A DNA stretch of 64,000 nt, taken from the NCBI GenBank assembly GCA_964016885.1, contig OZ024742.1, forward strand, positions 208,940,001 to 209,004,000, read 5' to 3'. Origin of the DNA: Eledone cirrhosa (Eukaryota). The translations under genes and the position numbers were made by a program. The notes beneath the pieces are model-generated. The model made no database searches. It was given only the letters and a program-made list of their open reading frames with translations, and had not been told where the DNA came from. Below are positions 1 through 57,977 of this stretch, piece after piece. The first letter of the stretch is position 1; the number at the start of each line of letters is the position of its first letter.

Positions 1-530
1 TATATATATATATGTATATATATCATATATATATATATATATATATATATATATATATATATATATATAGTATTTACGTATAGTATAATATATATATTAC
101 ACTTGTGATTATTTATGCCCTTGAGAAGCCCGACTGGGCGAAACGTACGTAGGTGATATTTTAAATAAACATGTTTTAACGGTCTATTCTCCGATTTTTT
201 ACTTTCCCACGTATATATATATATATATGAATATATATGTATATATATATGTATATATATATATATATATATATATATGTATATATATATATATAAGTAT
301 ATATATACATATACATATATATATATATATATATATATATATATATATATATATATATATATATATATATATATATATATATATATATATATATATGTGT
401 GTGTATATATGTTATATATATATATATATATATATATATATTGAGCTCAGCCGTCGGGGTCCTACTGGTTCCTATATATGTATATATATATATATATATA
501 TATATATATATATATATATATATATATATA
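1..530. repeat. (TA)n microsatellite arrays interrupted by short PLE 3'-end fragments
   Basis: Long TA runs with islands at about 69-213 and 441-475. Similar TA arrays recur across the window and generate the YIYIYI ORFs. Confidence 0.95.
116..156 (+). ncRNA. Minimal type I hammerhead ribozyme, U3-A8 core variant, in a PLE terminal fragment
   Basis: TTGAGAA-gccc(gact)gggc-GAAA-C(gtac)G-TA. Palindromic stem III (ACGTACGT), GUA site, AATAAA just downstream. Stem I is weak. Confidence 0.6.
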
Positions 531-2894
531 TTGTTATATTTGGGGAGGGTCATATTTGCGTAATATTGCCAGAATTAATAACAGAACACACTCACTGTTT
601 GGTTGGTTTTCGCTTCTCGCTGTCTTTTATATATATATATCTGCGATCTAACTTACTCGGTCCTCAATGTTGCCATTGACTGACCGGTGGTCAAAAATAA
701 AATAATACAGATACAATATAGACAAACACATATATATATAGTTTACATAAATCTTTCGTTGCACATCTGCAACATCGTCAGTGGTGTTATATTCATTGTT
801 CCTCCTGTTGTGTTGTATGTCTACGCCATTTTTTTTGTTCAGTCCGTCTATATATTTATTTATTTGTTTGCTTGTTTGTTTATCTTATTTTATTTTGTCT
901 TCTTTGCGCATGCGTTTGCGTGTGTGATGTGTGACTAGTGTGTATAGTGTTGTGTCTGCTGGGTGACTAGTGTGTGTTTATGTGCTTGTGTATGTATTTA
1001 TTTATCTTATTTTATTTAATTTAATTTACTTATTTATTTATACTTCTCTTAGGTCAGTGTTGTTTGTTTGGGTGTTGTTGTTGTTCCACTCATTCTTTCT
1101 GTTTAGCTTTGGTCTTCTAATTTCTATTTCACTGGCCTCTCTGATTTGCCTATCTGCTGGGTCATTCCTATGTTTAGATATTATTCTAATTTCTATGTTG
1201 TCTATGTTACCGTCATGATGTTGTCTAGCATGTTCGTATAGTACTGACCCGTTTTTTCGTCCTTTTAGTTCCCCCCAGTGTTGGTCTATCCTTTCACCTA
1301 TGCTACGAGCTGTCTCACCTATGTATGTTGTTGTCGTGTTTCTACAAGTACCCTCTGTACATCTTATGCTATAGACTACGTTTCTAGTTTTACAGTTTAT
1401 CCGGGGGTTCACCTTACATATGATACATTTCCTATTGGTACAGTGGGTTTTCTTAAAAGGGTAGGTTTTGCTGATCAGGGATTTTATGGTGGTTCCTGGC
1501 TTTTCTACCACCTTTATTTTTAAGTGGGTCTTTCTCAGGGCCTTTCTACACTGGTTAGCTAATTTCCCTCCAGGGGTGGCGTCCACAAACATGACACTCT
1601 GATATCTCTGGTTGTCGTACCATGATGTGGCCTTCCCTATCTTATGTCTAGCCCTATCTAAGCTATTCCATGATTTGCTCCTGTATAGTGGGCAAATTCC
1701 TTTCATGTCCAGTTCTATGAGGGTCTTATACTTTTCCATGGCTCCTTCGTATACTCTGACTCTGTCTCTTTGGTTGTAGCCAGAGAACTGCATGCGGTTG
1801 ATGAAGTGTTGGATGTGTCCTTCCATTTCTGTTGGGTCGCACATGCTGGACACATTCTTCATCACTCGTACCAAATCTGCGATCAGAATATTAAACTTAG
1901 CACTACTGGACATTGCTGAGTTTTTGAGTATCAGGTATTTGGAGGCCATGGGTTTAGCATAGTGTGAGTGGAGAATTTGGGCTCTCTCGTCTATAGTGTT
2001 AATCCAGAGTTCTGTGTCTAATACAGGTAGTCTATTGTTAGGGTGTTTGGAAGGGAAGTCTATAGTTACAGTTATACTCTGGTGTATGGAATTAGCTATC
2101 TGCTGGATGCTTTCCATCGTGCTACGTTCTAAATCAAACTTGTTAGTGCTCTCTAGTGGGGGTGTTCTTATAACTATATTGATATCGTCTACATAACGAG
2201 AGTACATGATGAGGTCTATGGAGCTTTCATTAAGGAGATCTTTAAGTCTCCTTTCCCACCATACCATGAAAAGGTTGGCAACATCGCCAGCTATGCTGAC
2301 GCCGATGGCTGCTCCCTCATTTTGGGTGTAGATTTTCTCATTGAACTTAAATATGTGGCCCTTTAGGGTAGTTTTGATACTAGCCCCTATTGCATGTGCG
2401 ACCATTTTTCTTACCTGATCAGTGTTTTGGGGGGTCCGTATAGCTTTGGTCCACCCAATCCACCTTCCTATGGGAGTCTTTTTAGCCATTGAGGTTATGG
2501 TGGGGGGTCTACCTCTTATAGGTCTACTAGGGCAGAAACATCTAAGGTCATGGCTGTCTAGGTAGTCAGTGTCGTAGGTAAGTCTAAGTAGGAGGCCCAG
2601 TTCGTCTGTGTCGACGTCGCAGAACTCCACCTCACTCTCAATGATCATCTCCACACATCTTTTCACAGCAAAATCAATGTTAATGGATGGGTACAGTGAC
2701 ACCACATCCATGCTGCCTATTATGCAGTTGGATAGGCTCCTGTTTTTGTTGCACTCACTGATTCTGCTGAGGAGGTCCTCTGTACTTTCACATACATCTG
2801 GGGACATCTTGATTATGGGGCGTATAACCATTGAGAGGAAGTAGGAGATCCTGTAGTTGCTAGCTATATTAGCTCCGCATACAGGTCTTGTTGG
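529..2894 (-). mobile_element. Penelope-like element family A, left arm (5'-truncated)
   Basis: RT + GIY-YIG ORF plus about 500 bp of 3' region ending in (TA)n. 529-2404 mirrors 2895-4770 (coordinate sum 5299). Confidence 0.95.
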
Positions 2895-55272: not shown

Positions 55273-57977
55273 GCCCCACTTTATCCTGAAGGATCTCAAA
55301 TCCAATTTTCCGAACAAACCCACTATTCGGCTTATTAACCCTACGAAGTTCGATTTAGGGAGACTTAGTAAAAGGATTATTGATAGAATTATACCTAAAA
55401 TTAGAATGTTGGCCCCTCTTGCACTGTGGAACAATTCTTTCGCGGTGATTGATTGGTTCAACGGTATATGCAACAAGGAACATTGCCGTTTTATCCAATT
55501 CGACATCAATAATTACTACTCCTCCATCACTTTACCACTTCTCCTTAGAGCTATCAATTTCACTAAAACACTCACAGTGGTTAAGGATTTCGAAGTTGAT
55601 GTCATGTTCAATGCCCGTAAGTCGGTGATTAATTTCGACGACTCTATTTGGATTAAAAAATTTAATAGTACCCCATTCGACGTGAGTATGGGCGCCAGCA
55701 ATTCTGCGGAGCATATTGATCTTATCGGCCTTTTCCTTCTTTTCTCTATCAAGGACGAATTCCCCAAGGTGGGCGGTGGTTTGTACCGTGATGATGGCCT
55801 TTTGACCATGACTAAGTGCGGCCCTCGTGCTTGAGACAGGTTCCGAAAAGAACTCACAGCCTTCTTTAAAGGCTTCAACCTCTCTATACAGGTTGAGACC
55901 AACCTCTCGGTTGTTAATTACCCCGACGTTACCCTCAATTTATCGAATGGCTTGTATTACCCGTATAGAAAGCCGAATGATACGCTTAATTACATAAGTA
56001 AGCATTCCAACCATCCTGCCAGCATAACCAAGAACCTGGTAAGAAACGTTTCTTTGAAGCTTTCCCGTCTATCCACTAACGAGCATATGTTCAACGACCA
56101 TTCCACATATTACAATGAAGCTCTTGCTCGGAGTGGATTTGTCGATAAAGTAGCATATACAGAGTACGAGAGAATAGACCTAGAAGAAATAGATCCCGAC
56201 GCATTATATGGTATAACCCACCATATAATATGGAGGAGGCCACACCATTAGCTAAGATCTTTCTATCCCTTATTACGAAGCATTTTCCCCTACACATAAA
56301 TATAGTAAATTGTTTAATAGAAATACTATTAAAATTTCTTACTCTACGACTCCTAAACTTGCACATAACATCACAGCTTCAAATTTAGCTAAACTACCTA
56401 GCCGTAGGAACACGTGCAACCCTGTAGTTAGTACTAACTGTAATTGTAGGAATCGGGTTGATTGCTCCCTATCCGGGAAATGCCTCTCGAGTAATATTGT
56501 CTACAAATGTAAGGTTGAAACACCCACATCCCGTAGGGCCCATAGGATTAACCGCCAATAAATTCAAGCAGCGTCTTTACATGCATACCCATTCTTTTCG
56601 TTACCCTCTAAGAAGGAATATGACATCACTTTCAGCTTATATCTGGAGTCTAAAAGACAACCACACCCAATATAAGTTACACTGGGTGATCCTAGCTAGG
56701 GCTAGATCGTATAACGGAAATAAAAACCCATGTGTCTTCTGCGCCGCTGAGGCCCTGGAAATACTCTACGCCACAGACCACAATTTTAAACAAAAAATCT
56801 GAGGCAATTTCGGCTTGTAAACATAAATTGCACAAAACCTTCCTGTATTACAGCCCCACATTATACCCTAACGGATAGTACGATCTATACGCGGATATTT
56901 TACATCTTCATGTGGTAGCTAAGTATATGTTATGTTTATACCATTACTTACTTTCATAGGTAAGTATATATTACCTGTATGTTTTGTGAAGGTACGTATA
57001 CTTTCTCGTACGTATATTTGATTGTATATGTTATGGCGTATATTTTATATATTCTGGTACATATGGTTTTGTTTATGTGTATACGTGAGTTTTGCGTCTG
57101 TGTGAGTATGCGTGTTCGTACGTATGTAGGGTGTGTGTATATATGTACTTCGTGTTTTGGTTGACGTACATCTCCGAACATTTCTGTATTTACATATAGG
57201 TATGTGTGTGCGCTTGTTATATACGTATTTATAATTTATATACGTTTATTTAATTATTTGTATACACGCACACGCACACACACACATATTTATATTTGCG
57301 TGTAATTGTATACTTATGGCGAGTGTTTTCGCGTTTGATTGTGTATGTACGTATTTGGATGCGTGTATGTATTTATTTAATTTCAATTACCTCTGTATTT
57401 TATTTACTTTATTCTTAACTCTGACGCGGAGAATCATTCGATTTCCTAGTTAGAATTTTAGTCTACAACGTCAGTTATACCATTTACGTGGTTTTGTCTT
57501 TGCGTGCAATTGTTCTCCACGCTCCACATATGACGTATTATCTTCGTATTTTCCGTTCATTGCCAGAGAACGTCTCTATGAACCACCTAAGAGAATATTA
57601 GTCTACGACTTCTTTTATACCATAAACGTGGTTCTGTCTTTGCGTGTAATTGTTTTTCACAACTCCAAATAATGACGTATTATATTCGTTTTTTCCCGTT
57701 ATTTGCCAGGGAACGTTTCCACGAACCAAAGTATCGTCTTCCTGTCTTCCTCCGGCTGCAACGTTTCTTGAAATATTCACTTCTGCGGTTACACATTGAC
57801 TTTGTTAGTTTCAGAAGATCCCGTTAAGGGTGAAAGCAGCGATTCTTTGCTTAAACTTTAATTTGTTATTTTAATAAATATTCACTCTACGGTTCTTATA
57901 TATTTGATATATATTTAACCTTATCGAGCCCTCTTTGGATTTTAGTCTTAAAATTTATTAGTATTACTATATATATA
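55273..57977 (+). mobile_element. Penelope-like element family B, right (long) arm, decayed RT + GIY-YIG
   Basis: FILKDLKSNF...RLINPTK, FIQFDINNYYSSIT, FDVSMGA, GLYRDDGL, PYRKPND, SNHP, NIVYKC. About 1.1 kb 3' region with an extra tail of about 105 bp ending in tatata. Confidence 0.92.

Follow-up and report, generated by a model that had tools for sequence, protein, structure and literature searches.

The palindromes in the window (the whole 64-kb stretch of DNA analysed here) are likely single PLE-driven insertions, made by duplicating twin priming. While the inverted PLE layout itself is not new (PMC8557442, PMC3846280), what is new beyond it is a counted rule, the fixed pairing of which the first-pass annotation overlooked: among 100 classifiable inverted insertions in the genome, 94 possess one short (S) end and one long (L) end, the L end being the S end plus a 'tail' of 26-86 nt. 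The copies show this pairing of S and L, with tails that point outward, sites that carry TA-like sequence, alleles common to both arms, stops that coincide and signatures at the junctions.

Inverted loci in the window and their families

Inverted arms were present at all 11 of the loci for which they had been claimed. A strict de novo scan identified seven TA-flanked inverted repeats in the window and none in each of 10 shuffles that kept TA tracts in place, which excludes chance. The window is not unusual in this respect, as comparable repeats outside it number 24 in 293 kb (5.2 per 64 kb), a non-random sample in that the stretches compared flank PLE insertions.

The first-pass annotation had ascribed one architecture to all of these loci. 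This holds for eight of the 11, which have the complete layout (tail-out, with TA-type flanks and one S and one L end), but not for two loci with one atypical end each (9690-10643 and 49859-51032), nor for the symmetric locus at 44171, which, being S/S with mirrored flanks, forms a separate class, so that a single class of 11 was rejected. The claim that 3' ends face outward wherever a polarity marker exists was borne out: the arms are tail-out by ORF or hammerhead at 9/11 loci, with family membership serving as the basis for 45311-45520 and cores read by eye for 27401-31226, 44171-44381 and 49859-51032, and no polarity marker was found at 15811-16300 or 35779-35952. Judged by sequence, the loci represent nine families: two Neptune-type PLEs (F1 and F2), a Hydra-type PLE (F3), four hammerhead tandem retrozymes (F4, F5, F6 and F9) and two families without a marker (F7 and F8).

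The F1 insertion consists of a left arm on the minus strand (528..2899, unit 4062 to 1691), which has its S end at 528 and carries an RT + GIY-YIG ORF fragment (1038-2915), and a right arm on the plus strand with the L end (2895..4826, unit 2186 to 4117). The arms are identical at 1876/1876 positions (529-2404 and 2895-4770), with 5 nt of junction homology at 2895-2899, and the 55-56 nt tail from S to L (4771..4826, plus strand) falls within the beginning of the following tandem unit's ORF, whose ATG is at 4746. A natural tandem elsewhere (L031) encodes a single ORF of 1210 aa with DKSG, YVDD and GIY-YIG motifs, in which the GIY-YIG motif is C-terminal and contains two cysteines, and the linker that joins RT to EN reads CX4CxxC at residue 1076, within the CX2-5CxxC motif defined in PMC8557442. 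These ORF motifs suggest that F1 is a Neptune-type EN+ PLE; its Pfam RVT_1 match reached E 9.5e-05 only, below the cut-off, and PLE hits in Pfam were weak or absent. F1 copies also include partial tandems (pLTR), an inverted 5'-truncated copy and a tail at one end. Its putative hammerhead was read by eye as a core with stem II, stem I not being clear.

A sister of F1, the Neptune-type F2, is represented by its GIY-YIG end and 3' UTR at 9690..10643, with the L end on the left and a right end ~40 nt short of S; a predicted hammerhead core in the 3' UTR (9938, minus strand) fits a relaxed pattern. The F3 locus at 53395..57967 (S left, L right, 86-nt tail, arms 94% identical) has a broken ORF, in pieces at 54587-55138 and 56256-56561. 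Motifs in these pieces point to a Hydra-type PLE, since they include a CxCX5C linker and an EN without CCHH, alongside a unit that is probably <3 kb and a (TA)n target, the clade traits given in section 11 of PMC8557442. A further F3 end was read by eye at 45311..45520 (L left, S right), and no F3 hammerhead was found within the window.

F4, F5, F6 and F9, with non-coding tandem units of 308, 514, ~320 and 437 bp, respectively, are probably non-LTR retrozymes, each with a predicted type I hammerhead. F4 (45580..46947, L left, S right) has arms that are 100% identical (45581-46947) and meet at 46154, with hammerheads at 45773 and 46081 on the minus strand and at 46164, 46472 and 46780 on the plus strand. 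The F5 locus spans 49859..51032, with S on the left and a right end between S and L; the left edge previously placed at 50290 is an internal tandem junction and does not lie in TA. F5-like arms are found at 27401..31226 (S left, 27401-27578; L right, 30744-31226, with a core at 30898), and these are 94% identical; because ~3.1 kb of LINE sequence separates them, their junction is not visible. In the F9 locus (26522..27260, L left, S right) the left arm is the 53-nt tail alone, the left flank is (GA)n adjoining TA, and a mutated core lies at 27023. F6, a hammerhead-like repeat at 44171..44381, is the S/S palindrome of the atypical class, with mirrored (TG)n/(CA)n flanks. Most cores escaped the strict hammerhead patterns; the relaxed one detected those of F2, F4 and F9, and the F5 and F6 cores were read by eye. 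In an Rfam scan of the window, no match within the 11 loci reached the gathering score; the scan yielded only microsatellite-driven miRNA matches below the cut-off and, beyond the loci, a single weak HH9 match at 15708-15779.

The non-coding F7 locus (15811..16300, S left, L right, tail ~50 nt) was searched for an ORF and a hammerhead and neither was found, its orientation being taken solely from the family ends. F8 (35779..35952) is a short palindrome plus tail in the S/L layout, and its centre falls in one ~15-nt hot spot common to 22 distinct copies parsed, a coincidence that the query itself selected for. As proposed at the outset, the layout is seen both in autonomous PLEs and in non-coding hammerhead repeats.

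Pairing of one short and one long end

The 100 classifiable insertions exclude 24 with atypical ends, and the six exceptions are S/S or L/L. For F1 the S/L combination was found in 36/37 inverted insertions (a coordinate-merged count, used in preference to an incomplete tally with 13 inverted F1 insertions), and a tail-blind search that included the window's own copy returned 18/18 (p=7.6e-6); a genome search with the F1 tail alone as query gave zero matches. F2-F7 and F9 together gave 58/63 classifiable insertions. Since each site is also used alone, with 76 L ends and 68 S ends among single-orientation copies, independent choice would make about half of the inverted insertions S/S or L/L. 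In a family-blind scan, 16/24 repeats had one end directly abutting TA and an offset at the opposite end.

The first-pass annotation had placed priming in the 3' region of the RNA. The two F1 ends are instead set 26 and 81 nt into the ORF with which the following tandem unit starts, so that S and L are internal priming sites there and not RNA 3' ends; several start sites have 2-4 nt or more of TA homology. Its description of a dominant integration mode fits the young families (inverted at 18/25 F1 loci and in 6/8 searched F4 arrays) but not F7 (3 inverted vs 28 direct), in genome searches that over-sample two-armed insertions.

Origin of the inverted arms

We consider it reasonably probable that twin priming on one RNA, with strand displacement, makes the inverted insertions. 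In this model a (TA)n tract would be cleaved on both strands by the PLE protein, and both 3' ends would start reverse transcription on the same RNA, presumably a tandem or circular transcript, at S and L, 26-86 nt apart. R2 RT is capable of strand displacement, and by analogy the L-primed RT may copy the tail and then displace the S-primed cDNA, so that one region would be copied by both. Microhomology of 2-5 nt or filler would then link this pair of antisense cDNAs, as in alternative end joining, after which each would template the second strand of the other. Loss of one cDNA would give a plain 5'-truncated copy ending at S or at L, an occasional second RNA would give discordant arms and chimeras, and retrozymes would use the PLE machinery in trans. 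More tentatively, duplicating twin priming might be programmed and the PLE default, with a dimer on one RNA junction whose two RT sites would begin at S and at L, from the two ends of a double-strand break, the RT that trails displacing the cDNA ahead of it; this would be common to Neptune-type, Hydra-type and retrozyme RNAs and would give ~10^5 long palindromes in the 3-Gb genome, a figure extrapolated from the biased sample with 5.2 per 64 kb.

In F1, the youngest family, arm joints have 2-5 nt of microhomology or filler. Microhomology of at least 2 nt was found at 18/27 filler-free junctions (14.6% by chance), and filler of 2-20 nt at 10/37. At a near 50:50 SNP the two F1 arms agree in 33/34 cases; over seven polymorphic sites 5 calls are discordant vs 29.8 expected, 11 private substitutions are present in both arms, and one insertion is discordant between its arms. 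The 5' stops of the two arms lie <=10 nt apart in 10/37 insertions (0.48 in shuffles; 0/100000). The allele sharing could also be explained by one active source locus, arm conversion or assembly polishing.

Several observations speak against one-RNA twin priming. F3 arms are discordant at 32/173 polymorphic calls (67 expected at random), with 6/23 in the window locus at 53395 and 7/16 at L153, and arm-to-arm divergence in F3 (3.9%) approaches that between copies (4.3%); in one insertion (L118) an F1 arm is fused with that of an F4 retrozyme; six of the 100 insertions are S/S or L/L; and the Poseidon PLE PAc shows no strand difference in start site in vitro (PMC11167929). The discordant F3 arms, the F1-F4 chimera and the discordant F1 insertion would instead be expected if two separate RNAs were carried on an asymmetric dimer, one subunit always using S and the other L, and both target ends primed, and extension of a second end on a different mRNA has been described in L1 (10.1101/2024.12.14.628481). 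Even so, we regard this as rather unlikely, given that it needs an extra source of asymmetry, S or L being able to serve alone, and by itself leaves the coincident stops and the allele agreement unexplained unless source loci are active one at a time.

The reach of the arms bears on self-priming of one strand, by cDNA fold-back or on an antisense RNA template (the latter proposed in PMC3846280), to give a hairpin whose staggered cutting by the endonuclease leaves a one-sided tail, a staggered resolution considered in PMC8557442. Such a hairpin accounts for the alleles that the arms share, the private variants carried by both and the palindromes with perfect centres, and fits the 25/36 F1 insertions in which the L arm is longer (19) or equal (6). 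In the other 11/36, the window locus at 528-4826 among them, the tail-less S arm reaches further 5', which excludes a single folded-back cDNA there and supports the earlier proposal of one cDNA primed from each of two target ends, with joining of the pair. With the loop on the tail-less arm in these cases, two opposite cutting geometries would be needed, and two private shared variants fall in insertions with the longer S arm; we therefore judge the hairpin route improbable. L arms ending within the tail or just past S (10/70) are matched by equally short S arms (9/70); with this control, a stop of the L arm at S was dropped as evidence, and a classic twin-priming stop in L arms is not demonstrated.

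The flanks, which are TA tracts, were compared by the strand polarity of their interruptions. This is the same on both sides in 9/10 F1 insertions (11/14 in another count), so the flanks are not mirrored. It is thus very improbable that an inverted duplicate of a single insertion arose afterwards, through DNA repair or replication at a fragile TA tract, a process that could produce the minority class with symmetric ends and mirrored flanks (44171 in the window, L251 and L281/L282) but could not produce a fixed S/L pair.

Same-family direct joints are tail-out in 142 cases and tail-in in none, the comparison that the first-pass annotation had called for. Joints of different families number 2, and the 142 have no TA between their arms. 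These counts largely refute two independent insertions back to back in one TA tract, which would also leave the S/L pairing and allele sharing unexplained; independent neighbours are indeed frequent (24 pairs from different families lie tail-in on either side of a TA tract), the 27401 junction is hidden and the 53395 arms differ in haplotype, yet the chance of this reading is slight in the extreme.

Equally far-fetched is an assembly or library fold-back artefact, suggested by the 100% identical arms of 528-4826 and 45581-46947 and by the window F1 junction not being seen among the 15 read joints listed (145 more; 4/12 runs), given family-specific S/L ends, old palindromes with arms 81-94% identical, flanks that are not mirrored, and nine joints between opposite strands, each found in 95-207 raw reads from another sample (with a single start position per joint, and without orientation). 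A read joint at 2405-2895, a candidate for the window insertion's junction, was rejected as that of the intact element.

Relation to known systems and significance

L1 twin priming, said to go back to Ostertag and Kazazian in 2001, has its second primer at an internal site that varies, with local duplication if there is any. The process proposed here works like twin priming but differs from that of L1: where L1 has its first primer at poly(A), a variable internal second and little overlap, here both sites are fixed, <90 nt apart, the arms overlap by kilobases and whole tandem units, and there is no poly(A). The likeness lies in both target ends priming, which here is suggested by geometry, and in cDNAs joined inverted with microhomology (10.1101/2024.12.14.628481, PMC12350158). 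The earlier statement that L1 twin priming inverts without duplicating was too strong, as the legend to a figure in PMC12350158 includes twin-priming insertions that carry duplications where the inversion occurs.

Among PLEs, PMC8557442 reports TA targets, with a 5'-truncated copy in inverse orientation and a tail on one side, and head-to-head is the most frequent arrangement according to PMC3846280, in line with the first-pass remark that inverted arrangements and microsatellite targets are known. With the EN+ PLEs (Neptune, Hydra, Naiad and Penelope/Poseidon) our copies share partial tandems, the inverted 5'-truncated copy at the 5' end, the tail, (TA)n, head-to-head arrangement and ends inside the ORF start; in the portions of these two papers available, the layout does not differ, and the published tail is 30-40 bp and 'often at one end', as against 26-86 nt and a near-obligate S/L pair here.

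PAc nicks and extends both strands in vitro, from two internal start sites that bound the tail, and is a predicted dimer (PMC11167929). Our families resemble it in having two such starts, known here from genome copies, and AT-rich targets; whereas the PAc sites lack homology to the cut DNA, several of those described here have TA homology. PMC11167929 does not connect its pair of start sites with the ends of a single inverted insertion, and uses 'inverted' once, for a blocking base. Twin priming as a PLE mechanism was not found in the titles and opening abstract lines of the papers that match both twin priming and Penelope.

Metazoan non-LTR retrozymes are known as tandems of non-coding units that contain a type I hammerhead and are presumed to be PLE-mobilised (PMC7761336; 10.64898/2026.07.22.740005). 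The units described here are longer (308-514 bp vs ~150-300 bp) and have an S/L layout in common with PLEs, and there is one PLE-retrozyme chimera; an inverted S/L layout was not found in the available portions of these two sources.

The origin of the tandem and inverted structures of PLEs and of their tail has been named an open problem (PMC8557442). The one-S-one-L rule, the allele sharing and the class with a longer S arm argue against hairpin self-priming as the sole route, and link the two start sites seen in vitro to the two sides of a single break. The presence of this signature on retrozymes, together with the chimera, provides genomic evidence for PLE proteins mobilising retrozymes. 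If the density observed here is general, PLE-type elements would be a major source of long palindromes, which matter for both genome stability and assembly.

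Inverted insertions and their families

A self-comparison of the window recovered inverted arms at all 11 loci at which the first-pass annotation had claimed them (numbered left to right from locus 1, 528-4826, to locus 11, 53395-57967), and none in shuffled versions of the window. The proposal that these loci share one architecture held for eight canonical insertions, whereas two have one atypical end and one is symmetric with mirrored flanks; one boundary of one locus also had to be corrected. The genome containing the window measures 3.0 Gb (G000, C3), and TA tracts make up 4.9% of the window. 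An old, diverged palindrome (69%) at 35171-35733, beside TA tracts, was absent from the original list, and single-orientation copies of families F1, F9, F3 and F2 lie in TA tracts at 20647-20852, 23698-24391, 47335-47452 and 57977-58349, respectively.

The arms fall into nine families (F1-F9), of which F1 and F2 are Neptune-type Penelope-like elements (PLEs). Copies of the sister family F2 (locus 2) carry a GIY-YIG end, so F2 is not a non-coding passenger. The Hydra-type PLE F3 (loci 8 and 11) has a CxCX5C linker as in Hydra. The retrozymes F4 (locus 9), F5 (loci 5 and 10), F6 (locus 7) and F9 (locus 4) are built of tandemly repeated non-coding units that carry type I hammerhead cores, those of F5 and F6 having been read by eye, while neither an ORF nor a hammerhead was found in F7 (locus 3) or F8 (locus 6). 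Two F4 insertions elsewhere in the genome (L206:1409-8287 and L207:262-4753) hold up to about 19 seamless units in one arm, which would be expected if the template were a circle or a long tandem. The F1 ORF in genome stretch L031 has a long in-frame Asn-rich insert in its N-terminal third, resembling inserts described for Adineta Penelope families.

The window also holds other elements. Broken ORF pieces at 32477-33974 (RT and GIY-YIG, the linker finger apparently missing) belong to a further PLE, which we take to be Penelope/Poseidon-like. Nested inside locus 5, between its two arms, is a degraded LINE at 28007-30413 (minus strand) that has RT and an N-terminal piece resembling an endonuclease; another at 6287-8448 (plus strand) has RT and a C-terminal motif that resembles a restriction-like endonuclease. 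About ten copies of a SINE-like repeat (140-200 bp, 80-96% identity) lie at 5308, 10796, 15020, 19463, 19579, 26364, 38248, 39216, 45151 and 52785. A type I hammerhead of canonical appearance (15708-15771; Rfam HH9, 30 bits) belongs to a different element and points into the TA tract on the left side of locus 3.

Outer ends and their pairing

Two outer ends recur in every family, a short one (S) and a long one (L), mostly at short TA-like words and separated by a tail of 26-86 nt. Priming had been placed at the RNA 3' region; in F1, the ORF ATG is at unit position 4037, S at 4062 and L at 4105-4117, so that both ends lie instead inside the ORF start of the next unit. S and L are internal priming sites, in agreement with PMC3846280 and PMC11167929. 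Both F1 copies that are direct-only and end at L (L031:9228 and L049:9047) have a C ahead of the TA tract, and in this they differ from the L ends of inverted copies. In L042, L044, L111, L134 and L136, both flanks are arrays of one ~10-25 bp TA-variant unit, up to 400 bp, which may either predate the insertion or have expanded with it.

The expected excess of tail-out pairs (3' ends of both arms outward) over tail-in pairs was borne out by 142 versus 0 same-family joints in all fetched DNA, a joint being same-family arms at most 40 nt apart without intervening TA. The 24 tail-in pairs detected join different families across a TA tract and are independent neighbours.

Among F1 inverted insertions with both ends visible, 36 of 37 were S/L and one L/L, a long arm having been required for part of this sample. 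A tail-blind F1 search yielded 25 loci (18 inverted, 5 direct, 1 chimera, 1 at a gap), and all 18 inverted loci were S/L, counting the window's own and one with an L arm below 40 nt that is not part of the 37. F2-F7 and F9 contributed 58 S/L, four S/S and one L/L insertions, excluding 24 with an atypical end and with one of the four S/S (L254) scored S/L in another analysis. Pooled across F1, F2-F7 and F9, 94 of 100 classifiable inverted insertions were S/L; the data counted here also served to define S and L, but the definition does not imply pairing. Single-orientation copies end at L in 76 cases and at S in 68, although some may hide a partner beyond the 3-kb view. A family-blind scan found the same end asymmetry in 16 of 24 repeats. 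Since each genome search scored the best 40 of 221-3054 candidates, these samples are biased to young copies.

The stretch around locus 7 (44026-44526), L251 and L281/L282 form a minority of symmetric palindromes (S/S or L/L) whose flanking DNA is mirrored too, which suggests that fold-back synthesis ran on into the flank or that repair acted later. F8 (35779-35952; L293-L317) comprises many short palindromes that look MITE-like but have the S/L layout, centred at slightly differing points within a run, ~15 nt long, where 4-nt palindromes overlap.

Junctions, templates and mechanism

The 5' reach of F1 was greater on the S arm in 11 insertions, greater on the L arm in 19 and equal in 6. As fold-back of one cDNA cannot place the tail on the shorter arm, at least 11 insertions need two cDNAs. 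Arm stops lay at most 10 nt apart in 10 of 37 F1 insertions (0.48 expected), filler was present at 10 of 37 junctions, and filler-free junctions had at least 2 nt of microhomology in 18 of 27 cases (14.6% expected). In 9 of 10 informative cases, flank interruptions retained their strand polarity. Raw reads of another sample did not show the window's own junction among the joints listed; of the 14 other joints listed, 9 were opposite-strand, with one start position each. This argues mildly against an assembly artefact and bears on nothing further.

At one SNP with alleles close to 50:50, the two F1 arms matched in 33 of 34 insertions; 11 private substitutions were common to both arms and 19 were confined to one. 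F3 arms mismatched at 32 of 173 calls, against 67 expected. Of 19 informative F3 insertions, 14 had at least one mismatch, and two recurrent sites accounted for many of the mismatches; at locus 11 the arms differ at 6 of 23 calls. A tail-out chimera (L118:1062-2600; G000:C3:155922800+) joins an F1 S arm to two F4 units that stop at an atypical site before TA, around a palindromic centre that includes some 20 nt of F1 sense sequence. The discordant F3 arms and this chimera count against a strict one-RNA rule.

For the directly observed layout, S/L pairing, allele sharing and junction signatures, we favour as the probable source twin priming on one RNA junction, with strand displacement, end joining and an occasional second RNA. 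One RNA junction, on a linear tandem or a circle, would serve both primers; L-primed RT would displace the S cDNA; host end joining would seal the centre; and a second RNA may occasionally be used. PMC11167929 has both strands nicked and extended from two start sites and predicts a dimer; that an asymmetric dimer holds two RNAs here seems unlikely. Hairpin resolution is improbable, and all remaining explanations together are equally so.

The PLE architecture is real, genome-wide and already known: PMC8557442 and PMC3846280 describe the insertion layout, and PMC7761336 and 10.64898/2026.07.22.740005 propose retrozyme mobilisation by PLEs. L1 twin priming is described in 10.1101/2024.12.14.628481 and PMC12350158, among it cases that use a second mRNA or carry local duplications; PMC9977147 had no bearing on the question. 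The literature searched, older subscription papers being outside its reach, yielded neither the one-S-one-L rule nor a connection of that rule with twin priming, nor the S/L inverted layout in retrozymes. What is added here is a sharper, testable mechanism for a known PLE architecture.
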